Part shown: piece by piece, positions 1 to 53,598 of the stretch
Numbering within the stretch: the stretch's first letter is position 1
Layout: each line of letters begins with the position of its first letter
From: an uncultured Aliarcobacter sp.
Lineage (GTDB): Bacteria; Campylobacterota; Campylobacteria; Campylobacterales; Arcobacteraceae
Assembly (NCBI GenBank): GCA_963664305.2
Contig: CAXXLV010000001.1
Location: forward strand, 1-64,000
Length of the DNA: 64,000 nt
Reading direction: 5' to 3'
Notes under the pieces: model-generated
What the model saw: the letters and a program-made list of their open reading frames with translations, nothing else
Told to the model about the DNA's origin: nothing
Databases searched by the model: none
Translations under genes and position numbers: made by a program

Positions 1-3000
1 GATAATGCATAACTTAATGTTGCTGCCGTTCCACCTACATCTGCTCCCATATCTTGAGTTAATGTAAATAGAGTTGCAAACGATGCACTTGCTGTATCTG
101 ATACTACATCTGTATTTGTATCTATTGTATCAGCATCTTGTGTTGTTAATGTTGGTATTGTTGTTTCTGTTACACCTACATTTACTGTTGGAGTAGCATC
201 ATCGAAGCTTATTGCTCCAGAAATATCTATTGTTTCTGAATCTGTTCTTTGATCTCCATCTCCATCTGTGATTGTTGCACTTGCTGTTAAGTTAATTGCT
301 CCAGTTTCATTTAATAATAATCCTACATTTGTTACTGAATTATCATCTGTTAATGTATCTGCATCATTTCCATCTACTTCTGTTAAATGATCGATTGGTC
401 CATTTTGAGTTAGAGTTACTGTTCCTGTACTTGCATCAACTGCTACTGTAAAGATTGGCTCTGTTACTCCTGCTACTGTACCTGTTACAACACCATTTAC
501 TAAAGATAATGTTATCTCTTCTCCATTACTTGTTAAGCTTGTTGTTGTACCTTCTGCTAGTGATAATGCATAACTTAATGTTGCTGCCGTTCCACCTACA
601 TCTGCTCCCATATCTTGAGTTAATGTAAATAGAGTTGCAAACGATGCACTTGCTGTATCTGATACTACATCTGTATTTGTATCTATTGTATCAGCATCTT
701 GTGTTGTTAATGTTGGTATTGTTGTTTCTGTTACACCTACATTTACTGTTGGAGTAGCATCATCGAAGCTTATTGCTCCAGAAATATCTATTGTTTCTGA
801 ATCTGTTCTTTGATCTCCATCTCCATCTGTGATTGTTGCACTTGCTGTTAAGTTAATTGCTCCAGTTTCATTTAATAATAATCCTACATTTGTTACTGAA
901 TTATCATCTGTTAATGTATCTGCATCATTTCCATCTACTTCTGTTAAATGATCGATTGGTCCATTTTGAGTTAGAGTTACTGTTCCTGTACTTGCATCAA
1001 CTGCTACTGTAAAGATTGGCTCTGTTACTCCTGCTACTGTACCTGTTACAACACCATTTACTAAAGATAATGTTATCTCTTCTCCATTACTTGTTAAGCT
1101 TGTTGTTGTACCTTCTGCTAGTGATAATGCATAACTTAATGTTGCTGCCGTTCCACCTACATCTGCTCCCATATCTTGAGTTAATGTAAATAGAGTTGCA
1201 AACGATGCACTTGCTGTATCTGATACTACATCTGTATTTGTATCTATTGTATCAGCATCTTGTGTTGTTAATGTTGGTATTGTTGTTTCTGTTACACCTA
1301 CATTTACTGTTGGAGTAGCATCATCGAAGCTTATTGCTCCAGAAATATCTATTGTTTCTGAATCTGTTCTTTGATCTCCATCTCCATCTGTGATTGTTGC
1401 ACTTGCTGTTAAGTTAATTGCTCCAGTTTCATTTAATAATAATCCTACATTTGTTACTGAATTATCATCTGTTAATGTATCTGCATCATTTCCATCTACT
1501 TCTGTTAAATGATCGATTGGTCCATTTTGAGTTAGAGTTACTGTTCCTGTACTTGCATCAACTGCTACTGTAAAGATTGGCTCTGTTACTCCTGCTACTG
1601 TACCTGTTACAACACCATTTACTAAAGATAATGTTATCTCTTCTCCATTACTTGTTAAGCTTGTTGTTGTACCTTCTGCTAGTGATAATGCATAACTTAA
1701 TGTTGCTGCCGTTCCACCTACATCTGCTCCCATATCTTGAGTTAATGTAAATAGAGTTGCAAACGATGCACTTGCTGTATCTGATACTACATCTGTATTT
1801 GTATCTATTGTATCAGCATCTTGTGTTGTTAATGTTGGTATTGTTGTTTCTGTTACACCTACATTTACTGTTGGAGTAGCATCATCGAAGCTTATTGCTC
1901 CAGAAATATCTATTGTTTCTGAATCTGTTCTTTGATCTCCATCTCCATCTGTGATTGTTGCACTTGCTGTTAAGTTAATTGCTCCAGTTTCATTTAATAA
2001 TAATCCTACATTTGTTACTGAATTATCATCTGTTAATGTATCTGCATCATTTCCATCTACTTCTGTTAAATGATCGATTGGTCCATTTTGAGTTAGAGTT
2101 ACTGTTCCTGTACTTGCATCAACTGCTACTGTAAAGATTGGCTCTGTTACTCCTGCTACTGTACCTGTTACAACACCATTTACTAAAGATAATGTTATCT
2201 CTTCTCCATTACTTGTTAAGCTTGTTGTTGTACCTTCTGCTAGTGATAATGCATAACTTAATGTTGCTGCCGTTCCACCTACATCTGCTCCCATATCTTG
2301 AGTTAATGTAAATAGAGTTGCAAACGATGCACTTGCTGTATCTGATACTACATCTGTATTTGTATCTATTGTATCAGCATCTTGTGTTGTTAATGTTGGT
2401 ATTGTTGTTTCTGTTACACCTACATTTACTGTTGGAGTAGCATCATCGAAGCTTATTGCTCCAGAAATATCTATTGTTTCTGAATCTGTTCTTTGATCTC
2501 CATCTCCATCTGTGATTGTTGCACTTGCTGTTAAGTTAATTGCTCCAGTTTCATTTAATAATAATCCTACATTTGTTACTGAATTATCATCTGTTAATGT
2601 ATCTGCATCATTTCCATCTACTTCTGTTAAATGATCGATTGGTCCATTTTGAGTTAGAGTTACTGTTCCTGTACTTGCATCAACTGCTACTGTAAAGATT
2701 GGCTCTGTTACTCCTGCTACTGTACCTGTTACAACACCATTTACTAAAGATAATGTTATCTCTTCTCCATTACTTGTTAAGCTTGTTGTTGTACCTTCTG
2801 CTAGTGATAATGCATAACTTAATGTTGCTGCCGTTCCACCTACATCTGCTCCCATATCTTGAGTTAATGTAAATAGAGTTGCAAACGATGCACTTGCTGT
2901 ATCTGATACTACATCTGTATTTGTATCTATTGTATCAGCATCTTGTGTTGTTAATGTTGGTATTGTTGTTTCTGTTACACCTACATTTACTGTTGGAGTA

Positions 3001-6000
3001 GCATCATCGAAGCTTATTGCTCCAGAAATATCTATTGTTTCTGAATCTGTTCTTTGATCTCCATCTCCATCTGTGATTGTTGCACTTGCTGTTAAGTTAA
3101 TTGCTCCAGTTTCATTTAATAATAATCCTACATTTGTTACTGAATTATCATCTGTTAATGTATCTGCATCATTTCCATCTACTTCTGTTAAATGATCGAT
3201 TGGTCCATTTTGAGTTAGAGTTACTGTTCCTGTACTTGCATCAACTGCTACTGTAAAGATTGGCTCTGTTACTCCTGCTACTGTACCTGTTACAACACCA
3301 TTTACTAAAGATAATGTTATCTCTTCTCCATTACTTGTTAAGCTTGTTGTTGTACCTTCTGCTAGTGATAATGCATAACTTAATGTTGCTGCCGTTCCAC
3401 CTACATCTGCTCCCATATCTTGAGTTAATGTAAATAGAGTTGCAAACGATGCACTTGCTGTATCTGATACTACATCTGTATTTGTATCTATTGTATCAGC
3501 ATCTTGTGTTGTTAATGTTGGTATTGTTGTTTCTGTTACACCTACATTTACTGTTGGAGTAGCATCATCGAAGCTTATTGCTCCAGAAATATCTATTGTT
3601 TCTGAATCTGTTCTTTGATCTCCATCTCCATCTGTGATTGTTGCACTTGCTGTTAAGTTAATTGCTCCAGTTTCATTTAATAATAATCCTACATTTGTTA
3701 CTGAATTATCATCTGTTAATGTATCTGCATCATTTCCATCTACTTCTGTTAAATGATCGATTGGTCCATTTTGAGTTAGAGTTACTGTTCCTGTACTTGC
3801 ATCAACTGCTACTGTAAAGATTGGCTCTGTTACTCCTGCTACTGTACCTGTTACAACACCATTTACTAAAGATAATGTTATCTCTTCTCCATTACTTGTT
3901 AAGCTTGTTGTTGTACCTTCTGCTAGTGATAATGCATAACTTAATGTTGCTGCCGTTCCACCTACATCTGCTCCCATATCTTGAGTTAATGTAAATAGAG
4001 TTGCAAACGATGCACTTGCTGTATCTGATACTACATCTGTATTTGTATCTATTGTATCAGCATCTTGTGTTGTTAATGTTGGTATTGTTGTTTCTGTTAC
4101 ACCTACATTTACTGTTGGAGTAGCATCATCGAAGCTTATTGCTCCAGAAATATCTATTGTTTCTGAATCTGTTCTTTGATCTCCATCTCCATCTGTGATT
4201 GTTGCACTTGCTGTTAAGTTAATTGCTCCAGTTTCATTTAATAATAATCCTACATTTGTTACTGAATTATCATCTGTTAATGTATCTGCATCATTTCCAT
4301 CTACTTCTGTTAAATGATCGATTGGTCCATTTTGAGTTAGAGTTACTGTTCCTGTACTTGCATCAACTGCTACTGTAAAGATTGGCTCTGTTACTCCTGC
4401 TACTGTACCTGTTACAACACCATTTACTAAAGATAATGTTATCTCTTCTCCATTACTTGTTAAGCTTGTTGTTGTACCTTCTGCTAGTGATAATGCATAA
4501 CTTAATGTTGCTGCCGTTCCACCTACATCTGCTCCCATATCTTGAGTTAATGTAAATAGAGTTGCAAACGATGCACTTGCTGTATCTGATACTACATCTG
4601 TATTTGTATCTATTGTATCAGCATCTTGTGTTGTTAATGTTGGTATTGTTGTTTCTGTTACACCTACATTTACTGTTGGAGTAGCATCATCGAAGCTTAT
4701 TGCTCCAGAAATATCTATTGTTTCTGAATCTGTTCTTTGATCTCCATCTCCATCTGTGATTGTTGCACTTGCTGTTAAGTTAATTGCTCCAGTTTCATTT
4801 AATAATAATCCTACATTTGTTACTGAATTATCATCTGTTAATGTATCTGCATCATTTCCATCTACTTCTGTTAAATGATCGATTGGTCCATTTTGAGTTA
4901 GAGTTACTGTTCCTGTACTTGCATCAACTGCTACTGTAAAGATTGGCTCTGTTACTCCTGCTACTGTACCTGTTACAACACCATTTACTAAAGATAATGT
5001 TATCTCTTCTCCATTACTTGTTAAGCTTGTTGTTGTACCTTCTGCTAGTGATAATGCATAACTTAATGTTGCTGCCGTTCCACCTACATCTGCTCCCATA
5101 TCTTGAGTTAATGTAAATAGAGTTGCAAACGATGCACTTGCTGTATCTGATACTACATCTGTATTTGTATCTATTGTATCAGCATCTTGTGTTGTTAATG
5201 TTGGTATTGTTGTTTCTGTTACACCTACATTTACTGTTGGAGTAGCATCATCGAAGCTTATTGCTCCAGAAATATCTATTGTTTCTGAATCTGTTCTTTG
5301 ATCTCCATCTCCATCTGTGATTGTTGCACTTGCTGTTAAGTTAATTGCTCCAGTTTCATTTAATAATAATCCTACATTTGTTACTGAATTATCATCTGTT
5401 AATGTATCTGCATCATTTCCATCTACTTCTGTTAAATGATCGATTGGTCCATTTTGAGTTAGAGTTACTGTTCCTGTACTTGCATCAACTGCTACTGTAA
5501 AGATTGGCTCTGTTACTCCTGCTACTGTACCTGTTACAACACCATTTACTAAAGATAATGTTATCTCTTCTCCATTACTTGTTAAGCTTGTTGTTGTACC
5601 TTCTGCTAGTGATAATGCATAACTTAATGTTGCTGCCGTTCCACCTACATCTGCTCCCATATCTTGAGTTAATGTAAATAGAGTTGCAAACGATGCACTT
5701 GCTGTATCTGATACTACATCTGTATTTGTATCTATTGTATCAGCATCTTGTGTTGTTAATGTTGGTATTGTTGTTTCTGTTACACCTACATTTACTGTTG
5801 GAGTAGCATCATCGAAGCTTATTGCTCCAGAAATATCTATTGTTTCTGAATCTGTTCTTTGATCTCCATCTCCATCTGTGATTGTTGCACTTGCTGTTAA
5901 GTTAATTGCTCCAGTTTCATTTAATAATAATCCTACATTTGTTACTGAATTATCATCTGTTAATGTATCTGCATCATTTCCATCTACTTCTGTTAAATGA

Positions 6001-39076: not shown

Positions 39077-39364
39077 TTAACCATTAATTAAACTCATAAC
39101 TCTTTTTCTTTCATCAATTTTACAATTTGTTATATCTTTTTTAGTTTTTGAATTAATTATACAAGTTAGAGTTTTATCTAACAAATTAGTTCTATCTTCC
39201 AATTTATCATTTTTTGATGCTTCTATTCTTTTTATATATTCAAAAATCAGATTCTCTTTCTCTTTTTCTAATTCATGAATATTTTCATTTGCATATAAAT
39301 CAAAAATAATAAAAAATGGTATTAATTTATTCTTCAAAGAAGCCCTTTTCTTGAATAATATCAT
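39077..39364 (-). CDS. Hypothetical protein
   Basis: 95-aa ORF with two Cys filling the gap after the MauG-like gene; start uncertain. Confidence 0.55.
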   Translation of the reverse strand: MILFKKRASLKNKLIPFFIIFDLYANENIHELEKEKENLIFEYIKRIEASKNDKLEDRTNLLDKTLTCIINSKTKKDITNCKIDERKRVMSLING

Positions 39365-39410: not shown

Positions 39411-40532
39411 CTATTTTTCTAATAGATATTCGTATTTTTTATCAGTTAATAATTTCATAAAAGCAACTAATGCTTCAATTTTTCTATCATTTAAAGCATT
39501 TGCTTTTAATTCTTTTAATGAAATAGTATCTTTAACCTCAGCATCATCCCAAACTTTTCCAGTTTCTGGATTTATAGTTCTATCTTTATTGTTGTATTTA
39601 TCATAAAATTCAACAACAGTTTTTAAATCTTTAAATACACCATTATGCATATAAGGAGCAGTTACAGCTACATTTCTTAGCGTTGGAACTTTATGTTTTC
39701 CTTTTTGATTTATATCTGTTACATTTGGATTTGCTAACAAACCTTCATCGATAGCTTTTACACCATTTTTAGCTCTTAACTCTTTATTTTCTGGTGTTCC
39801 GATATTATGATATTCATAATTTGTAAAAGTTTCTCCCTCTTTATCTTCACCTTTTAATACATGGCAATTTGCGCATGAGTTATTATTGTTTGAGAAAAAT
39901 ATTGATTTTCCTAAATCTTCAAGTGGAGTTAAATCATATTCACCTTTTAAATATCTATCATATTTTGAATCAAATGGAGAAAATTCTTCTGTTCTTTCAA
40001 AACTTGCAATTGCAACAGTCATCGCATCATAAGCTTTATTTTCATCTTTGAAAATATCTTCACCAAAAATATTTTTAAATGATTTTACATATAAATTGTT
40101 TTCTTTAATTCTTTCAACAACTTCTTTTTTACTTGCCATTCCCATTTCAATTGGATTAAGTGGAGGTCCACCAGCTTGTTCTTCTAAAGTTGCTGCTCTT
40201 CCATCCCAAAACTGTCCACCAACATATTTTTGTTTTTTCTCATCAAAATGAAATTTTGGAGAAAATTTTGCATAAGATGCAGTTGGAGCTTCTCTATCAC
40301 CTAAAGATTTTCCATCATCACCAAGTGAAGCCATTTTTGAAATACCATTTTCCCTATCATCAACAAATCCTGCGTTTGGATTATGACATGTTGAACAGCT
40401 TTGTGTTTTATTATGCGATAAATTCACATCAAAATATAAAGATTGACCTAAAGCCTCTTTTGATAAAACATCACTAGCATTTAGACTTGAAAAAGCTAAA
40501 AGCACCGAAATTAATAAATTTGATTTTTTCAC
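39411..40532 (-). CDS. Di-heme cytochrome c peroxidase superfamily protein, MauG-like
   Basis: CSTCH, CANCH, GGQFWDGRA, LNPIEM, TFTNYEYHNIG, PYMHNG, FYDKY, INPETG. Confidence 0.92.
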   Translation of the reverse strand: MKKSNLLISVLLAFSSLNASDVLSKEALGQSLYFDVNLSHNKTQSCSTCHNPNAGFVDDRENGISKMASLGDDGKSLGDREAPTASYAKFSPKFHFDEKKQKYVGGQFWDGRAATLEEQAGGPPLNPIEMGMASKKEVVERIKENNLYVKSFKNIFGEDIFKDENKAYDAMTVAIASFERTEEFSPFDSKYDRYLKGEYDLTPLEDLGKSIFFSNNNNSCANCHVLKGEDKEGETFTNYEYHNIGTPENKELRAKNGVKAIDEGLLANPNVTDINQKGKHKVPTLRNVAVTAPYMHNGVFKDLKTVVEFYDKYNNKDRTINPETGKVWDDAEVKDTISLKELKANALNDRKIEALVAFMKLLTDKKYEYLLEK

Positions 40533-41437
40533 TAAATCCCCCTTTTTTTTAGTAAATTTGAAAATGGTCTTAAAATTAAATCTTTTAAAGATATATAATC
40601 ATTCATTTGTTCACGTCTTAAACCAAATTTTAAAACTCTCACATCTTTTGACAAAAATAAAGAACCAAAAATTCTGTCCCATATAGCAATATAACCACCA
40701 TAATTTTTATTAAAATGCTTTTTATCATGATGGATTTGATGCTGTTTTGGAGAAAATAACCACTTCTCTAAAACAGCTCCATATGAAAATGGCACATGTG
40801 AATGTCTTAAATTTGAACCAAATATAGAGAATATAAATAAAAATATATTAACTCCAAAAACCATATAAATATCTATTTTTGCTCCAAATAGATAAATAAA
40901 AACTCCTGTAACAACACCTACACTTAAAGAGTATCGAAGTCCAAAAAGAAAATTTTCAACGGGATGAACTCTATAAAATGTTACTGGTGTTAAAACCTTT
41001 GCACTATGATGTACTTTGTGAAATTCCCAAAGAACTGGAATAGTATGTAAAAATCTATGTAACCAATATCTTGTAAAATCACTAACAATAAAAACACTAA
41101 GTGTGTACATCAAAACGATTTGTTTATATGAAAAGAACTCATTTTCATAATAATCAAAATATAAATACAACTCTTTATTTACAAATAAAGCTACACTTTT
41201 TGCACTCATTATAAAAGGTATTAACAACATCATATTTATAAAATATGATAAAAAAATATAGTAATAATCAAGTTTTGCACTTGGATGTAACCACAACTTT
41301 GAAGAAGTGATTACCCTACTATTTTTTTTAGTCACATAAAAATAGATAATTGCTAAAAATATTGAACTTAAAATATAAAGCCAATATAGTCTTTTACTTG
41401 GATTTGTTAAATAATCAAGTGCAAGAAGTTCATCCAT
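40532..41437 (-). CDS. Sterol desaturase/fatty acid hydroxylase family membrane di-iron protein
   Basis: His boxes HRFLH, HKVHH, HSH, HQIHH; NYG...WDRIFGS. Confidence 0.92.
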   Translation of the reverse strand: MDELLALDYLTNPSKRLYWLYILSSIFLAIIYFYVTKKNSRVITSSKLWLHPSAKLDYYYIFLSYFINMMLLIPFIMSAKSVALFVNKELYLYFDYYENEFFSYKQIVLMYTLSVFIVSDFTRYWLHRFLHTIPVLWEFHKVHHSAKVLTPVTFYRVHPVENFLFGLRYSLSVGVVTGVFIYLFGAKIDIYMVFGVNIFLFIFSIFGSNLRHSHVPFSYGAVLEKWLFSPKQHQIHHDKKHFNKNYGGYIAIWDRIFGSLFLSKDVRVLKFGLRREQMNDYISLKDLILRPFSNLLKKRGI

Positions 41438-41441
41438 CTAA

Positions 41442-42389
41442 TCAATCTCCATCCGCATCTAAAACATTAGCTGTAAGTCCTAGTTTTACAATCAATGATA
41501 AATAATATGCATTGTGTAATTCTCTTAAACTAGTAAATAAATCTTTTGCATCTGAAAAATCATCTTTTTTCAATTTCATTAAATTTGCTTTTGCTTCATT
41601 TATTTTTAAAAGTGCAACTTCTAACTCTTTTTGTGCATCTAATTTTTTAGAAACATCTGCAAATCCATAATAATCTTTCTTCTCTAAGATTTCTCTATGT
41701 GCATCTAAAATTGCATCAATTGCTGCAAACGAATTTTGACTTAAGAAATATTCAGCTCTGTCATTTTTTGGGTCATTTTTGAATTTTGAAGATAACCCAC
41801 CAGCATTTCCAACTCTCCACTCTTTTAATCTATATGAACTTGCAATTAAAGTATTAATGATAATTGCATTTTCAAGTTTTTCATCTTTTGGTTTTGATGT
41901 TAAATACTCTTCATATGCACCTTTTATATCTTCTAAATGAGAAATTAAAGAATCCAAAATAACTTTTGCCAACTCTTTTTCTCTTTGTGTTACCTCTTTA
42001 TCATTGTATAAAACATACTCTAATGCATTTACAGTTTTAAAAGAGTTTTTAAATAAAGCTTTTTTTGGCTCATCTTTTCCTTCAATAACCCTTTGTATTT
42101 GAGAATTTAAATCCTCTTTTAGGTTATTAAAAACATCCATAAATCTTGGTGTATCTAAATAAGTATCATCTAATTCTCCAGCAAAATAAATTGCTTCAAC
42201 TTTTTTCCAAGATTTGATAAAATTCGTAAAATTTTTATCATTTATATCTTCTTTTAAAGTTTTAGCATCTTTTATTGCTACTTCTACATTTGGAATAGAT
42301 ACATTTTTAACTATATTTAAAAGTGCTCTATCTTGTGCAAATATCATTGATGTACAGAAAAACATCAAAAATAAAATCTTTTTTATCAT
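41442..42389 (-). CDS. Imelysin-family protein with degenerate motif
   Basis: Signal peptide, helical, TVNALEYVLY, C-terminal DADGD. Confidence 0.8.
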   Translation of the reverse strand: MIKKILFLMFFCTSMIFAQDRALLNIVKNVSIPNVEVAIKDAKTLKEDINDKNFTNFIKSWKKVEAIYFAGELDDTYLDTPRFMDVFNNLKEDLNSQIQRVIEGKDEPKKALFKNSFKTVNALEYVLYNDKEVTQREKELAKVILDSLISHLEDIKGAYEEYLTSKPKDEKLENAIIINTLIASSYRLKEWRVGNAGGLSSKFKNDPKNDRAEYFLSQNSFAAIDAILDAHREILEKKDYYGFADVSKKLDAQKELEVALLKINEAKANLMKLKKDDFSDAKDLFTSLRELHNAYYLSLIVKLGLTANVLDADGD

Positions 42390-43780
42390 TATAATTCCTC
42401 TAAAAATTTAATCAATTTTTCTCTTTGTTCTTTTGGTAAATTCATATAGTTTTCTTTACTATTTTTTGCTTCACCACCATGCCATAAAATTGCCTCTTGA
42501 AAACTTCTAGCTCTTCCATCATGTAAAAGTCTAGGTTTTTCTTTATTTATTTTTTCATGTAAAGCTAATCCCCATAAAGGAGCTGTTCTCCATTCACTTC
42601 CACTTGCCATAAATTCAACTCTACCATCAGCTAAATCATCACCCATATCATGTAATAAAAAATCTGAAAATGGTGACACTTTAAAATCATATTTTGTATC
42701 AAAACTTGGAATGTGACATTTTGAACATGAAATTGCTTCAAATAAAACTAAACCTTCTTCATACTCTTTTGTTTTTTTAGGCGAATATGCTTTTATATTT
42801 TTTAAATAGTAAGAAACAGCCTCTAATCTTTCATCTGGTAAATCTATCTCTTCTTTAGCTTTAGGAGCTTCATTACACTCTTTTTGAAATTCTGTACAAT
42901 TATCATTTGGGAAAATAGTTGTAGTTAATCCCATATCATTGTTTGCAGCACCGGCAACTTGTTCTTTTAAAAATGCCACACTTGCTTTCCAAGTATAAAT
43001 TCCAAGCTCTGTTTTTTTTGTAATATTTGAATAAACATAATTTGCTCGACCAGATATTCCATCATTATTATCATCATTTTCATCAATGTGTTTTAAAATA
43101 TCATCTTTTGAAATAAGATTGATTAATCCCATTCCATTTAAACTAGGTGCAATTCTATATGAAATATTTGCATCTTTATGCAATTCTCCATAATTTAAAT
43201 TTTCTAGATTATATTTTGGTTTTAATAAAGTTTGTTTTTCACCATCAGGAAAACTCACTTCAATCTCTTCAAAATCTATTTTGATTTTTCCTTCAAAATC
43301 TACTCCAAAAATACCATTTATAGCCAACTGATTTCCATAAACTGGTTCAGGAATAAAACCTTTATATTTCAAAAGTTCTTGATGTTCAGGACTATTATCT
43401 GATCTTATTGATAATCTTGCAACTAATGATCTTGAAGTCATATTTTGCTCTGCAATTAGAGTTCCTCTTCCATTTTTAGGATGACAATTTACACAAGTAT
43501 TTGCATTAAAAAGTGGTCCTAAACCATCACGTGCCGTTGTAACACTTGGAGCTTCAACCCATGGAATTGTAAAAAAACTTCTTCCAAGAATAAATTTATC
43601 ATATTCACTATCACTCAATGATGAAATAGGATTTAGCAATAAAGAACTATTTTTATCACTTGATAAAAATTTACTATCACTATTAACTGCAAAAAGCCCT
43701 GTAGCAAATATTGCTACAAGGCTTTTTAATAAAATTACTTTTTTAATAGTTAAAAAATTAGATTTTTGTTTCTTCAGCAT
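42389..43780 (-). CDS. Di-heme oxidoreductase (DHOR/DUF1111 family)
   Basis: DGLGPLFN, CVNCH, CSKCH, DFLLHDMG, EWRTAPLWG, LHDGRAR...AILWHGGEA. Confidence 0.92.
   Translation of the reverse strand: MLKKQKSNFLTIKKVILLKSLVAIFATGLFAVNSDSKFLSSDKNSSLLLNPISSLSDSEYDKFILGRSFFTIPWVEAPSVTTARDGLGPLFNANTCVNCHPKNGRGTLIAEQNMTSRSLVARLSIRSDNSPEHQELLKYKGFIPEPVYGNQLAINGIFGVDFEGKIKIDFEEIEVSFPDGEKQTLLKPKYNLENLNYGELHKDANISYRIAPSLNGMGLINLISKDDILKHIDENDDNNDGISGRANYVYSNITKKTELGIYTWKASVAFLKEQVAGAANNDMGLTTTIFPNDNCTEFQKECNEAPKAKEEIDLPDERLEAVSYYLKNIKAYSPKKTKEYEEGLVLFEAISCSKCHIPSFDTKYDFKVSPFSDFLLHDMGDDLADGRVEFMASGSEWRTAPLWGLALHEKINKEKPRLLHDGRARSFQEAILWHGGEAKNSKENYMNLPKEQREKLIKFLEEL
43691..43727 (-). terminator. Intrinsic terminator-like hairpin inside the 5' coding region of the DHOR gene
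   Basis: Minus-strand RNA AAAAAGCCUUGUAGCAA-UAU-UUGCUACAGGGCUUUUU, fully paired with one G-U. Confidence 0.75.
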
Positions 43781-45107
43781 CCGTTACATCTTCAGTAGTT
43801 AGACTAATTCCATTAGCAGCTGCAACATTAACCATTTCATCACCAAGTTTTCTCATCTCATTTTTAAGTTTTACAATAACTTTTGATTGTTCATTTTCTG
43901 GTCTGATTTGATAATCAAAATGAGCTTTAGTTTTTGCAACTTCATCAATACTATTGATTTTATCTTCAATAGATGCCATTAATTTTTCAATTCTAGCTTT
44001 TGTTTCAGCATCAGTTGCATCTAAAAGAGCTTTTCCATATTTTTTACCATTATAAGTTGCAGTTAAAATATTTTTAAACCCTAAATAGTTATTTGCAATA
44101 TCTCTGTGTGTATTATCTGAAAAACAAGAGTGTTCATCTTCTTCACTTGGAGTTAAAACTGCAACTGCAATTCTTTCATTTGCTAATTCAGATTTAATAA
44201 ATACTCCCATTCCTGCAATAATTTGTTTCATTGCTTCAGAACTTTCAATATTTTTTGAAGCTTCTTTTCCTTTTAACTCACCTTTTAATGCAGCTTGGTA
44301 TAAACCATTATTTCCTTTTACATTTTTTTCCCAAGCAGAAGTAATAACAGCTAAATCATCTACAAGTTTTGTTGTTGATGCTTGTAAATAAGCCAATCTT
44401 CTTTTTGCATTTTTATCAGTTGTAAAATCTGTAAGTGGTCTTTGTCCCGCTGTCATAGCACCTGGAGTTACAGCATCTGTCATAAAGTTTGAATAATCTT
44501 GGTCTTGTCCCCATAATAAAAATTCAATTGCATGGTAACCAGTTGAAACATTTGCATCACCACCATTTTCATTTAATTCACCTAAAGCATCAGCTGTAAT
44601 TTTTGTTACATCTACTTCTTTTGATTCTTCTCCACCTGGATTAAATTTTCCAACAGTATCAATAATATTTCCTGAAGTTAATTTTCCATCAGCATCAATT
44701 GTATAATCAATCATATTTTCATCTAATGGCCAAGCATTAATTTGTCCTTCTAATGAACCATAAGCTTCAGAAACCCATCCCTCTTCTGCATCAACAGGAC
44801 CATTTGCAAGTCTAAAGATTTCAGTTTGTCCATAAGACTCTCTTGATTCTAACCAAGCTTTTTTTGCAGCATCAAGATTTACTTGTGTAGGATTTTTGCT
44901 AAATGTATCTATTGCTGTTTTTAAAGCTTTTGCATCTTTTAAAGCATCACTATAATTTGCTAAAGCAATATCTGAATATGCTTGTAAGATAGATTTTACT
45001 TGAGTTACTTCAAGTTTTTTTGGTTCAGTATTAGTTGCAGCATTAGAAGTTAATGCAATAGCTGCAACAACAGAAAACGAAACTAACACTTTTTTAGTTA
45101 AATTCAT
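43758..45107 (-). CDS. Imelysin-family iron-regulated protein (IrpA/IcmP-like)
   Basis: INAWPLDE, GYHAIEFLLWGQD (GxHxxE), EDEHSCFSDNT. Confidence 0.93.
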   Translation of the reverse strand: MNLTKKVLVSFSVVAAIALTSNAATNTEPKKLEVTQVKSILQAYSDIALANYSDALKDAKALKTAIDTFSKNPTQVNLDAAKKAWLESRESYGQTEIFRLANGPVDAEEGWVSEAYGSLEGQINAWPLDENMIDYTIDADGKLTSGNIIDTVGKFNPGGEESKEVDVTKITADALGELNENGGDANVSTGYHAIEFLLWGQDQDYSNFMTDAVTPGAMTAGQRPLTDFTTDKNAKRRLAYLQASTTKLVDDLAVITSAWEKNVKGNNGLYQAALKGELKGKEASKNIESSEAMKQIIAGMGVFIKSELANERIAVAVLTPSEEDEHSCFSDNTHRDIANNYLGFKNILTATYNGKKYGKALLDATDAETKARIEKLMASIEDKINSIDEVAKTKAHFDYQIRPENEQSKVIVKLKNEMRKLGDEMVNVAAANGISLTTEDVTDAEETKI

Positions 45108-45186
45108 AATCTAATTCCTTTTGTTAATTTTAATATTAATTATCATAATGAATTAAATCAAAAAAAAACTTTATCCTCTCTTAAAG

Positions 45187-45201
45187 TGATAATTATTATC
45201 A
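45187..45201. promoter_or_regulatory. Fur box (perfect 7-1-7)
   Basis: TGATAAT-T-ATTATCA upstream of the imelysin operon; weaker copy TAATATT-A-ATTATCA at 45131-45145. Confidence 0.8.
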
Positions 45202-45208
45202 TAAATAT

Positions 45209-47284
45209 TTAGAATATACTTTTTAAATTATTTATAATATCTTTTGTTTTCTCATCTTTTATATTTTTATCTAGAACTTTATTTAATTTTTCTTCTATTT
45301 TATCTCTATTTTTTTCTATCTCATTTTTTAATAATTCTTTAGTATCTAAAGAGATATTTGGTTTTTTCATATCACCTTTTAATGTAATTAAAAAACTACT
45401 AGTTTTAATTTGAGTATTTAATTTTGCATCAATTAAATTTTTCTCAAAATCAAGTAATGCATCTGTTGTATTTATTTGTGTATTTGGACTTTGCATATTT
45501 AGATTTGATATAACTTGTTTTTCATTTATATTACTATCAATTTTAACTGTTTCATATATCTCTTTTGTTAAATCGAATTTTGCTAGTTGACTTACAATAT
45601 TTGAATAATCATTTGGTAAAAAATGTCCATTTAAAAGATTTGCTTTTAATTTTCCTTTTTTTGTCAATAATTCATATTCTAAATTTACATTTGCTTTTGA
45701 ATCAAATATCTCTGGTTTATTCATTCTATATAATAACTCTTTCATATTTGCGTCATCTAATTTCAAGTTAAAAATGTCATCTTTTAAATTAAAATCCAAT
45801 TTTCCACCAGCAAAATTTGAATTTCCAGTTAAGAAAAGAATATTATCCACAGATTTAACCTCACCTTTTAAATCTATATCTCCTCTTAAATCTGTATTTG
45901 TTAAACCTTTGATTTTTTCTAAAGCTAATATATTTAAAAAATAATCACTAGTAAATGATTTATTATCTAGATTATAAACTGCTTTTTCTAAATTTAATTT
46001 TCCAATATTTGATAAAACATCAATTTTAGAAATAGCTTGATTTGGAACTAATGAAGTATTTATTGTTGAATCAAAAGTTATTACATCACTCAACTCTTGT
46101 TTATAAACTGCATTTACAACTTCATTTATGATTTTTGCATTTGATATTTTTGAAACTATTAATCCATCTAATTTTTCTAATGAACTGTTTTTAACATCAG
46201 CATTTACATTAAAATCACCCGTTAAATAAACTGGCTCATTTAACATATGTAAAACTTTTTCTATTTTTGCATTTTCGATTTTAAAATTAATATTTTGAGC
46301 AATAGAATCTTTTAAATCTAATTTATATGTAGTTGTACTTTCAAAAATATTTGAAGTTCCATCAATTGATACAACAGAATTTTCCATAGAAACTTTACCT
46401 ATATTTGAAAATTCTCCATTTAATTTTCTTCCTAAAATCCCCTCTAATCTATTTAAATTTTTTATATCAACTTTATAGTCACTAAAAAGTTTTTTATTGT
46501 TTAAATCTATTATTGTTTTATCTAAGTAAATATCTGCAATAGATGTTAATAATTCAGATTTTACTTCTGCCCTATTTCCAAATAAAGAAGCATTTATATC
46601 CCCTTGGAAATTTATTGGTGAAGATAAAGTTTGATTGAACTCTTTATTAAAAATATCATTATTCAATATACCTTTTGATAGATTTGCTACAAAAACTCCA
46701 TCTAAATTGTTTACATCAATATTTTTAATATTTGCGTTAATGTTTAAATATCCTTTTAAATATTGTGGTTTATTTGCTAAAGCTAATAGTTCTTCAATTT
46801 TTCCATCTTTTAAATCTATTTGAACATTGTTTACTTCAAACTTATTTAGATTTATATAATATTTTGTTTGACTACTTGCAAGATTTGAGAATCCTTGGAT
46901 AATTGCATCTTGATTATTTCCTTTAAAAATACCATTTGTATAAAATTTTCCTTTTAAATCTTGATGCATTAAATTTTTTAATGTAGATAAATCATCAATT
47001 TTTATATCATATTTTAAATCTACACTCTTTTTAAAAATTGATAAATCACCAGAAATATTGATATAAGAATCTTCATTAATAACGGCATTAAAATCTATAG
47101 ATTTTAGGGTTAATATAAAATTATTTACTTTTAACTTCACTTTTTCTTGTTCATTATTTACTTTACTTTCTATATATGAAGAAATGATGCTATTTCCGTA
47201 TTTAGTAAATAAAGTTCCATATATTGAACCAATAATCAAAACTATTAAAATTGTTAATGAGAAAAATAATTTTTGCATAAGCAC
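45209..47284 (-). CDS. Membrane-anchored beta-rich periplasmic protein (AsmA-like), function unknown
   Basis: N-terminal TM, internally repetitive beta-strand pattern, C-terminal LKGDMKKPNISLD; ATG 47278 is an alternative start. Confidence 0.75.
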   Translation of the reverse strand: MLMQKLFFSLTILIVLIIGSIYGTLFTKYGNSIISSYIESKVNNEQEKVKLKVNNFILTLKSIDFNAVINEDSYINISGDLSIFKKSVDLKYDIKIDDLSTLKNLMHQDLKGKFYTNGIFKGNNQDAIIQGFSNLASSQTKYYINLNKFEVNNVQIDLKDGKIEELLALANKPQYLKGYLNINANIKNIDVNNLDGVFVANLSKGILNNDIFNKEFNQTLSSPINFQGDINASLFGNRAEVKSELLTSIADIYLDKTIIDLNNKKLFSDYKVDIKNLNRLEGILGRKLNGEFSNIGKVSMENSVVSIDGTSNIFESTTTYKLDLKDSIAQNINFKIENAKIEKVLHMLNEPVYLTGDFNVNADVKNSSLEKLDGLIVSKISNAKIINEVVNAVYKQELSDVITFDSTINTSLVPNQAISKIDVLSNIGKLNLEKAVYNLDNKSFTSDYFLNILALEKIKGLTNTDLRGDIDLKGEVKSVDNILFLTGNSNFAGGKLDFNLKDDIFNLKLDDANMKELLYRMNKPEIFDSKANVNLEYELLTKKGKLKANLLNGHFLPNDYSNIVSQLAKFDLTKEIYETVKIDSNINEKQVISNLNMQSPNTQINTTDALLDFEKNLIDAKLNTQIKTSSFLITLKGDMKKPNISLDTKELLKNEIEKNRDKIEEKLNKVLDKNIKDEKTKDIINNLKSIF

Positions 47285-50211: not shown

Positions 50212-52540
<2,329 letters not shown>

Positions 52541-52675
52541 TAACTCTTTTTTTATTTCCATTTGAGGAAAAAGTTTTTCCAATAATAAATATTATTAATA
52601 ATGTTTTAAGTTTATTCCTATATAATTCCAATACAAAATATATAAAAATTTATAAAATAAAAAAGGATTTAAAAA

Positions 52676-53272
52676 ATGTTAGTTACAAAAAAAGCTCCAG
52701 ATTTTACAGCAACAGCTGTACTTGCAGATGGTCAAATTGTTGAGAATTTTAATTTATATGAAAATATTGGTGAAAAAGGTGCAGTATTATTTTTCTGGCC
52801 TTTAGATTTTACGTTTGTTTGTCCATCTGAAATTATAGCTTTCTCTAAAAGAGTTGATGAATTTGAAGCAAGAGGAATTCAAGTTATAGGTTGTTCAGTT
52901 GATTCTCAATTCTCTCACTTTGCATGGAGAGAAACAGCAGTTGAAAATGGTGGAATTGGAAGAGTAAAATTCCCAATGGTTGCAGATTTAAGTAAACAAA
53001 TTTCTAGAGATTATGATGTATTATTTGGTGATTCTGTGGCACTTAGAGGTTCATTCTTAATTGATAAAGATGGAACTATCAGACATGCAGTAATCAATGA
53101 TTTACCACTTGGAAGAAATGTTGATGAAATGATTAGAATGGTAGATGCAATGTTATTTACAAATGAGCATGGTGAAGTTTGTCCTGCTGGTTGGGCAAAA
53201 GGTGACGAAGGTATGAAAGCAAATACTGCTGGTGTTGCTGAATACTTAGCTAAAAATGAAAATAAATTATAG
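52676..53272 (+). CDS. ahpC: 2-Cys peroxiredoxin
   Basis: DFTFVCPSE and GEVCPAGW. Confidence 0.96.
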   Translation: MLVTKKAPDFTATAVLADGQIVENFNLYENIGEKGAVLFFWPLDFTFVCPSEIIAFSKRVDEFEARGIQVIGCSVDSQFSHFAWRETAVENGGIGRVKFPMVADLSKQISRDYDVLFGDSVALRGSFLIDKDGTIRHAVINDLPLGRNVDEMIRMVDAMLFTNEHGEVCPAGWAKGDEGMKANTAGVAEYLAKNENKL

Positions 53273-53280
53273 GATTCATC

Positions 53281-53598
53281 ATGGGAAAATATTTAGAATT
53301 AAATCAAAATAATATAGAAGATACGATAAAAGAAGGTGTGTCATTAGTTGACTTTTGGGCACCTTGGTGTGGACCTTGTAGAATGTTAGCTCCAACTATT
53401 GACCAATTAGCTGAAGATTTTGAAGGAAAAGCAAATATTTGTAAAGTAAATACAGAAGAAGAACCTGATTTAACTGCACAATATCAAGTAAGATCTATTC
53501 CTACTATTCTTTTCTTTAAAGATGGAAAAGTTGTTGATCAACTAATTGGTGCTACAAATAAAACTACTCTTGAAGAAAAATTAAATAAATACTTATAA
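53281..53598 (+). CDS. trxA: Thioredoxin
   Basis: WAPWCGPC, SIPT. Confidence 0.95.
   Translation: MGKYLELNQNNIEDTIKEGVSLVDFWAPWCGPCRMLAPTIDQLAEDFEGKANICKVNTEEEPDLTAQYQVRSIPTILFFKDGKVVDQLIGATNKTTLEEKLNKYL

Follow-up and report, generated by a model that had tools for sequence, protein, structure and literature searches.

A five-gene cassette on the minus strand of a 64-kb window (positions 1 to 64,000 of contig CAXXLV010000001.1, assembly GCA_963664305.2) from an uncultured Aliarcobacter sp. is a variant of the already known imelysin-DHOR-imelysin-DUF1513 module. It encodes an imelysin, a DHOR protein, a second imelysin, a desaturase-like membrane protein of the fatty-acid-hydroxylase superfamily (FAH) and a di-haem protein of the MauG clade. 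The three-gene core has been described (PMC3143127; 10.1101/072470); the FAH/MauG variant and a lineage of FAH proteins linked to iron loci appear to be new, as judged from the literature searched. We presume, at a probability of about 50%, that the operon is repressed by Fur and would serve oxidation and capture of Fe(II) in the periplasm, feeding an FbpABC importer with FAH as an accessory oxygenase. The features are as follows.

45187..45201, no strand assigned: predicted Fur-type palindrome, perfect 7-1-7 form, TGATAATTATTATCA, 80 nt ahead of the imelysin-A start
43758..45107, minus strand: imelysin A, IcmP/LruB type, 449 aa (PF09375, E 7.6e-67; IcmP, PDB 7xrx, E 5e-54)
42389..43780, minus strand: DHOR/DUF1111 di-haem c protein, 463 aa (PF06537, E 8.4e-70)
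41442..42389, minus strand: imelysin B, IPPA/PA4372 type, 315 aa (PF09375, E 4e-25)
40532..41437, minus strand: FAH, membrane di-metal protein, 301 aa (PF04116, E 1.4e-25, 90.6 bits at a cut-off of 31)
39411..40532, minus strand: MauG-clade di-haem c protein, 373 aa (PF03150, E 5.4e-48)

Gene order, conservation and relation to known modules

The five tightly coupled genes below a perfect 7-1-7 box, reported in a first-pass annotation of this DNA, were recovered with regard to open reading frames (ORFs), families, junctions and box. In gene order, the junctions are a 23-nt overlap, a 1-nt overlap, a 4-nt gap and a 1-nt overlap. The further statement that neither an Ftr1/EfeU permease nor a TonB receptor is adjacent holds as well: no TonB receptor adjoins the cassette according to a family scan of the window ORFs, and a search of the entire genome gave no FTR1 match, with 4 of 14 genomes positive as control. 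DUF1513 (PF07433) was likewise not found in the genome (control genome G361 positive). FeoB and FbpA/FbpB are encoded away from the cassette, one fbpA copy with a box of its own.

DHOR was detected in 34 of 36 genomes of the same genus and in none of 24 genomes from other families; in a phylum-wide draw it occurs in 11 of 15 genomes of the family and in 1 of 285 others. For the comparison, regions were taken from 28 of these 34 genus members, from five further genomes of the family and from one genome outside it, with one second copy included. All five genes keep their order in 27 of the 28 genus genomes and in all five other family members, i.e., in 32 Arcobacteraceae loci, and the intact order is also seen in SUP05, Moraxella, and Psychromonas, in good agreement with the earlier view of all five families as one unit. 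An exception within the genus is given solely by G013 (L058), where the order is broken within DHOR. There, the cassette is truncated beside a 343-aa ORF on the opposite strand, and the compared stretch does not contain the last three genes.

A GTDB scan with an alignment of 91 FAH sequences gave 593 confirmed stretches, of which the best 80 were analysed. This cassette, or pieces of it cut by contig ends, accounts for 30 of these best 80 FAH loci, distributed over Arcobacteraceae, Sulfurospirillum, Sulfuricurvum, SUP05, Moraxella, and Psychromonas. The cassette FAHs constitute one clade (33 rows, support 98), with gammaproteobacterial members at two places among the Campylobacterota. Due to this single clade, we assume one cassette rather than many independent assemblies, which was likely spread by transfer.

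Operons composed of imelysin, DUF1111, imelysin, and DUF1513 are known from P. aeruginosa (PA4370-PA4373, icmP), V. cholerae (VC1264 onwards) and Azospirillum (PMC3143127; 10.1101/072470), and cofitness has been reported for this version (10.1101/072470). Their first three genes and the order thereof are the same as in our cassette, a GxHxxE imelysin comes first and a His-less imelysin third, and the operon contains no permease; control of the Fur type is predicted here as well. Different from these operons, DUF1513 is missing here and FAH is fourth, a fifth oxidase gene, either MauG-like or a multicopper oxidase, is near-fixed, and imelysins A and B represent a sequence subtype of their own.

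Imelysin A has the GxHxxE motif and an acidic EEDEH loop, both in 27 of 27 aligned homologues, as well as invariant Trp residues, and is likely a periplasmic metal-binding protein. In imelysin B the motif His is lost (GxHxxE in 0 of 28 homologues) and 21 of 28 end in an acidic DxDGD; its profile matches the imelysins of DUF1513 operons with a probability of 99%. DHOR carries two CXXCH motifs in 25 of 25 homologues, and no solved relative was found at E<=0.1. A predicted complex of DHOR and the MauG-like protein scored 0.01, which speaks neither for nor against an interaction. In one DUF1513-type operon, an ApbE flavin transferase gene is situated between imelysin and DHOR (L159:5575-6633).

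Two neighbouring genes were excluded from the cassette. A 95-aa ORF without family, 46 nt downstream (39077-39364), lies near the cassette only in some relatives, and a 691-aa gene upstream (45209-47284) is absent or displaced in many. The latter has no Pfam or NCBIfam match and immediately precedes the cassette in most members of the genus, with a distance of 7 nt between its stop and the box. In L089-L092, FAH and the MauG-like gene are separated by the gene of a 444-466 aa protein with a weak outer-membrane beta-barrel match, and porins are found ahead of the cassette in L056, L088, and L091. A different variant, imelysin-DHOR-unknown (404 aa)-FTR1, occurs in another Campylobacterales family (L051, G302). 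Positions 1-6000 of the window have a GC content of 0.35 and a strong AT skew, compared to a window background of approximately 0.25.

The FAH protein and its iron-linked lineage

With proteins named from A. butzleri, FAH shares 85% identity, in keeping with an Aliarcobacter-like host. It carries, on a membrane protein, the His boxes HxxxH, HxxHH, a lone H, and HxxHH (H127, H131, H140, H143, H144, H212, H233, H236, H237). Ten His are invariant among 91 diverse homologues, and the invariant residues, mostly His, are those of the enzyme family. The AF2 model has a pLDDT of 96, and the ESM Atlas returned only 'sterol desaturase' clusters. The His-box membrane di-metal motif is shared with OlsE and other PF04116 enzymes such as Scs7p. 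However, the OlsE model NF052566 gives 60.2 bits, below its cut-off of 475, and Scs7p is the top but weak fold match (Foldseek E 1.0, TM 0.30; Z 3.9, root-mean-square deviation 5.8, 168 aligned); FAH belongs to a separate lineage associated with iron loci.

For the relation to DUF1513, 60 DHOR loci were considered, 59 from the 98 DHOR-positive genomes among 401 Pseudomonadota and one from a separate search, related genomes not being independent. DUF1513 occurs without FAH in 43 loci, FAH without DUF1513 in four, neither in 13 and both in none; DUF1513 is also missing from all of the best 80 FAH loci. Both a DUF1513 operon and an FAH of the iron-linked type are present, at separate sites, in G547, G354, G679, and G573. 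The first-pass annotation had let FAH and the MauG-like protein together fill the place of DUF1513. For FAH, which holds the fourth position, this stands; the MauG-like gene is no substitute, since it is also located beside DUF1513-type operons and a multicopper oxidase can take its place.

In 77 of the best 80 FAH loci, from six phyla, an imelysin, DUF4856, TonB-receptor or FbpABC gene is a neighbour or fusion partner, with the exception of three Aureispira loci. Besides the cassette, a second locus type, DUF4856-imelysin-TonB receptor-FAH, was observed in Alteromonadales and, with variant order, in Nitrospirota, Bdellovibrionota, and Bacteroidota, and a third, DUF4856-FAH-FbpABC, in Oceanospirillaceae, the SAR11 family, and Nisaea. 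Both types recur at marine loci (L100, L102, L105, L107-L110, L095, L111, L116, L118, L133, L143, L273-L275, and others), and a literature search on DUF4856 returned no published description of either. The possibility that DUF4856 is a hidden imelysin, by which the partners of FAH would be brought together, was considered and is not supported: apart from the signal peptide, the profile-profile probability does not exceed 5%, and none of the 50 best fold matches of its model (pLDDT 91.5) is an imelysin, the first (Z 8.3) being a generic helical bundle. In an unbiased draw of 401 genomes, all 12 FAH hits of at least 345 bits are located in iron-module loci, compared to none of 23 middle-tier hits (23 of 26 fetched) and none of 10 distant paralogues; the neighbour profiles were built from iron loci, and for the middle-tier hits the Pfam scan covered the nearest neighbours. 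No published description of the iron-linked FAH lineage or of the FAH/MauG variant was found in the mostly open-access literature searched, and the accessible part of PMC6405878 mentions neither imelysin nor desaturase.

Among the 150 best FAH representatives (50% clusters), 29 long sequences were scanned for fusions. An N-terminal FAH is fused to a MauG-like protein (4), an imelysin (6), a TonB receptor (7), an FbpA-type protein (3), a creatininase (4), an EEP domain (1) or nothing clear (4), and several of these fusions are represented by many full-length members. As judged by eye, the linkers retain the signal or lipobox sequence of the partner, which suggests read-through of coupled genes. 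Due to these retained signal sequences and the charge bias of the loops, the C-terminus and the invariant His site of FAH likely face the cytoplasm.

It is tempting to regard FAH itself as the missing inner-membrane step, i.e., as an iron conduit or an Fe(III) reductase or release site replacing EfeU or DUF1513. The fusions resemble EfeU-EfeO fusions (PMC3143127), the genome lacks FTR1, FAH and DUF1513 never share a locus, and the 12 top-tier homologues all lie in iron-module loci. We nevertheless consider this role unlikely. In one whole locus type FbpABC directly follows FAH, 9 of 30 cassettes have an FbpA-type gene (six, within 8 kb) or FTR1 (three) nearby, the invariant residues are those of an enzyme family, the fusion linkers look like read-through, and in four genomes the iron-linked FAH is encoded apart from a DUF1513 operon. 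The likely cytoplasmic His site and the presence of FbpABC or FTR1 beside the gene argue against a permease or pore and for a putative accessory oxygenase. Of the two roles proposed for FAH at first, membrane component or supplier of a modified lipid or ligand, the former is weakened, since FbpABC or FTR1 adjoin several cassettes and FeoB and FbpA/B are encoded elsewhere in the genome, and the latter, still putative, fits better.

The fifth gene: MauG-like enzyme or multicopper oxidase

The closest solved relative of the fifth protein is MauG of P. denitrificans (E 1e-107, 48.6% identity), with 6nx0, 6e1c, and canonical peroxidases far behind. Both proteins have two CXXCH motifs (here C46/C49/H50 and C220/C223/H224), Tyr at the axial-ligand position (Tyr310, corresponding to Tyr294 of MauG) and the distal Gln/Pro/Glu, and Paracoccus MauG falls inside a clade with cassette-type proteins (support 99-100). 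All aligned members from cassettes retain both CXXCH and the equivalents of Gln103, Pro107, Glu113, and Tyr294. In contrast to P. denitrificans MauG, the gene is part of an iron-type operon without mau operon or methylamine dehydrogenase (MADH), Asn66 is replaced by Glu, and Trp199 is absent. An Asn-rich loop is found here instead. Every non-mau member aligned lacks Trp199, and the position of Trp93 varies (W/Y/L/H). No MauA or MauB was found in the genome by tblastn, the P. yeei locus being positive as control. On TIGR03791 (cut-off 443.85) the window protein scores 106 bits and P. denitrificans MauG itself 96.8 bits (L147:8893-10056); due to the latter score, this model seems to describe another MauG lineage. 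A nesting of Paracoccus MauG within a non-mau clade, seen in two quick trees (branch support 96), was not adopted, as the alternative is not rejected (approximately unbiased test, p 0.247).

MauG oxidises Trp residues of preMADH, and in parallel MbnH modifies a Trp of MbnP. By analogy, the MauG-like enzyme could oxidise a Trp of imelysin or DHOR post-translationally and thereby build a metal site. The kinship with MauG, the retained Tyr294, Gln103, Pro107, and Glu113 equivalents, the invariant Trp residues of imelysin A and the lack of a MauA/MauB substrate would suit such a function. We hold it to be very doubtful, since the surface relay residue Trp199 is lacking in every non-mau member aligned and Trp93 is not conserved, a copper oxidase can replace the gene, and most imelysin operons lack it: although a MauG-like gene also accompanies DUF1513-type operons (Azospirillum, L157/L284, L282), only one of the 43 DUF1513-type DHOR loci has one nearby.

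The replacement was observed in the SUP05 family. Of its 81 genomes, 17 contain FAH, in 14 cases within the cassette and in three as DUF4856-FAH-FbpABC. The fifth gene of the 14 cassettes is MauG-like in seven and a twin-arginine (Tat) multicopper oxidase in seven; as the latter are close kin, they probably represent one event. The closest model of the swapped oxidase is CueO (296 bits, below cut-off). Since enzymes that likely reduce H2O2 and O2, respectively, interchange in the fifth position, an electron sink is suggested for it.

Stand-alone MauG-clade proteins with Lys or Leu at the Tyr294 position occur in L289, L290, L295, L296, and L298, and two of the genes of this set precede a periplasmic binding protein (PF01497).

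Predicted Fur control and proposed mechanism

The 2.78-Mb genome contains two perfect 7-1-7 sites, one of which is the box of the cassette, and 15 with one mismatch. Within the window, seven boxes with at most two mismatches were counted, compared to a mean of 2.66 in shuffled sequences; 5 of 100 shuffles reach seven, so the count alone is marginal. Real support for the predicted site comes from conservation: close to the start of imelysin A, 35 of 61 cassettes (mostly Arcobacteraceae, including one duplicate contig) have a box with no more than one mismatch, compared to 0.2% of shuffles and to 1 of 61 ahead of the fifth gene, which is internal to the operon. Several of the genome's 17 best boxes precede an FbpA-type gene, a TonB receptor, a PepSY-TM gene, exbB-exbD-tonB, and katG; others adjoin unrelated genes. 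Of 41 DUF4856 loci, 6 have a box with no more than one mismatch ahead of this gene. A promoter scan was no better than shuffles (47 versus 40.4).

Published RNA-seq data on A. butzleri LMG 11119 after 90 min of host-cell contact (PMC9927503 Suppl. Table 4) list log fold changes of +2.40 for 01953 (imelysin), +2.41 for 01954 (hypothetical), +1.76 for 01955 (imelysin), and +2.09 for 01956 (fatty acid hydroxylase), with +2.71 for feoB; these loci were equated with cassette genes solely by annotation and order. Together with the conserved box, this co-induction of four matching genes speaks for the iron-type regulation proposed in the first-pass annotation. The supplement of PMC11069385 lists iron-induced imelysins without a row for a cassette-type FAH, nor is there a row for FAH in the readable supplement files of PMC7190382. 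In PMC2864753, SAR11_1239, beside sfuC, is induced but unannotated and could not be mapped to FAH. Sequencing runs contributed contig sets of relatives with small shares only. One metatranscriptome contig covers FAH to DHOR; it was not used, as such contigs are no evidence of a single transcript or of its level.

Alternatively, the operon might mainly provide peroxide defence under PerR-like control, with H2O2 removal and Fe(II) sequestration and no uptake. The two di-haem proteins are of the peroxidase type, the genome has four Fur-family matches, and a one-mismatch box (50223-50237) is situated ahead of katG, which is followed by peroxiredoxin-like and thioredoxin-like ORFs (50320-53598), so that cross-control by Fur and PerR is possible there. 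This explanation appears quite unlikely, since G and C stand in the box as in the Fur-type consensus, similar boxes precede iron importers, the matching genes are induced together with feoB in A. butzleri (PMC9927503), and the fifth position can hold a multicopper oxidase that does not remove H2O2.

As a further alternative, the cassette could handle another metal (copper, manganese, lanthanide) or an organic ligand and be merely co-regulated with iron. EfeM binds Cu and Zn besides Fe and an EfeO structure contains Sm3+ (PMC9174327), Price et al. called the substrate uncertain (10.1101/072470), and the swapped oxidase is nearest to CueO. As, across the loci, the neighbouring genes encode FbpA-type ferric binding proteins, bacterioferritin, flavodoxin, Fur, FTR1, and TonB systems, we regard this as improbable.

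Our preferred model remains capture of iron in the periplasm without a siderophore, drawn by analogy with EfeUOB and with the metal-binding EfeM (PMC9174327). At low iron, Fur would release the operon and imelysin A would bind iron at HxxE and its acidic sites. While the imelysins would bind the metal, conversion of Fe(II) to Fe(III) would fall to DHOR together with the MauG-like di-haem enzyme, with the fifth gene product as electron sink, using H2O2 in case of the MauG-like enzyme and O2 in case of the copper oxidase, which may also limit Fenton chemistry. Fe(III) would then be handed to the FbpA/FbpB importer encoded elsewhere in the genome. In the weakest step, FAH, with a di-metal site facing the cytoplasm, may hydroxylate or desaturate a membrane lipid or acyl ligand and would not be an iron pore. 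Shared with EfeUOB/EfeM are imelysin-fold metal-binding proteins, a haem peroxidase and, in the model, oxidation followed by ferric capture; different are the lack of EfeU/FTR1 in the genome and of a cupredoxin domain, and the presence of haem c enzymes (PF06537, PF03150) instead of a DyP-type EfeB peroxidase in the operon.

Several observations weigh against this model. In thermofluor assays, PIBO and IPPA bound neither ferric iron nor haem (PMC3143127). In the 401-genome sample, 16 of 23 MauG-clade genes have no imelysin-module neighbour within 1.5 kb, and the cassette of L082 lacks the MauG-like gene. Gammaproteobacterial cassettes are preceded by a weak box with 3-5 mismatches. In PMC9927503, 01957, at the position of the fifth gene, is absent from the induced list (Suppl. 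Table 4), the condition was host-cell contact, and in another strain an imelysin is down (-2.11) after 30 min; data on iron limitation or a fur mutant were not found for the cassette in the published data searched. Finally, the cost of making three haem/di-iron enzymes during iron starvation is left unexplained.

It is tempting to speculate further, although we would not expect it to hold, that the FAH lineage is an unrecognised core component of iron uptake without siderophores in six or more phyla of aquatic bacteria, where the di-iron site of FAH would perform the inner-membrane step for imelysin, DUF4856, TonB-receptor, and FbpABC modules by receiving, reducing or releasing iron or by making an iron-binding lipid, and that the high-valent di-haem chemistry of MauG was recruited from an iron-oxidising peroxidase like that of this operon.

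Imelysin-DHOR operons are widespread, DHOR occurring in 98 of the 401 Pseudomonadota genomes sampled. The natural swaps, FAH for DUF1513 in the fourth position and MauG-like enzyme for multicopper oxidase in the fifth, make the module testable, and as the cassette is near-core in Aliarcobacter, A. butzleri is usable as a model. Furthermore, a large MauG-clade group without methylamine dehydrogenase is brought to light, and FAH represents a lineage of membrane di-metal enzymes for which 'sterol desaturase' is the sole annotation and which serves as a marker of iron-uptake loci in marine bacteria, among them the SAR11 family, SUP05, Alteromonadales, and Oceanospirillaceae.

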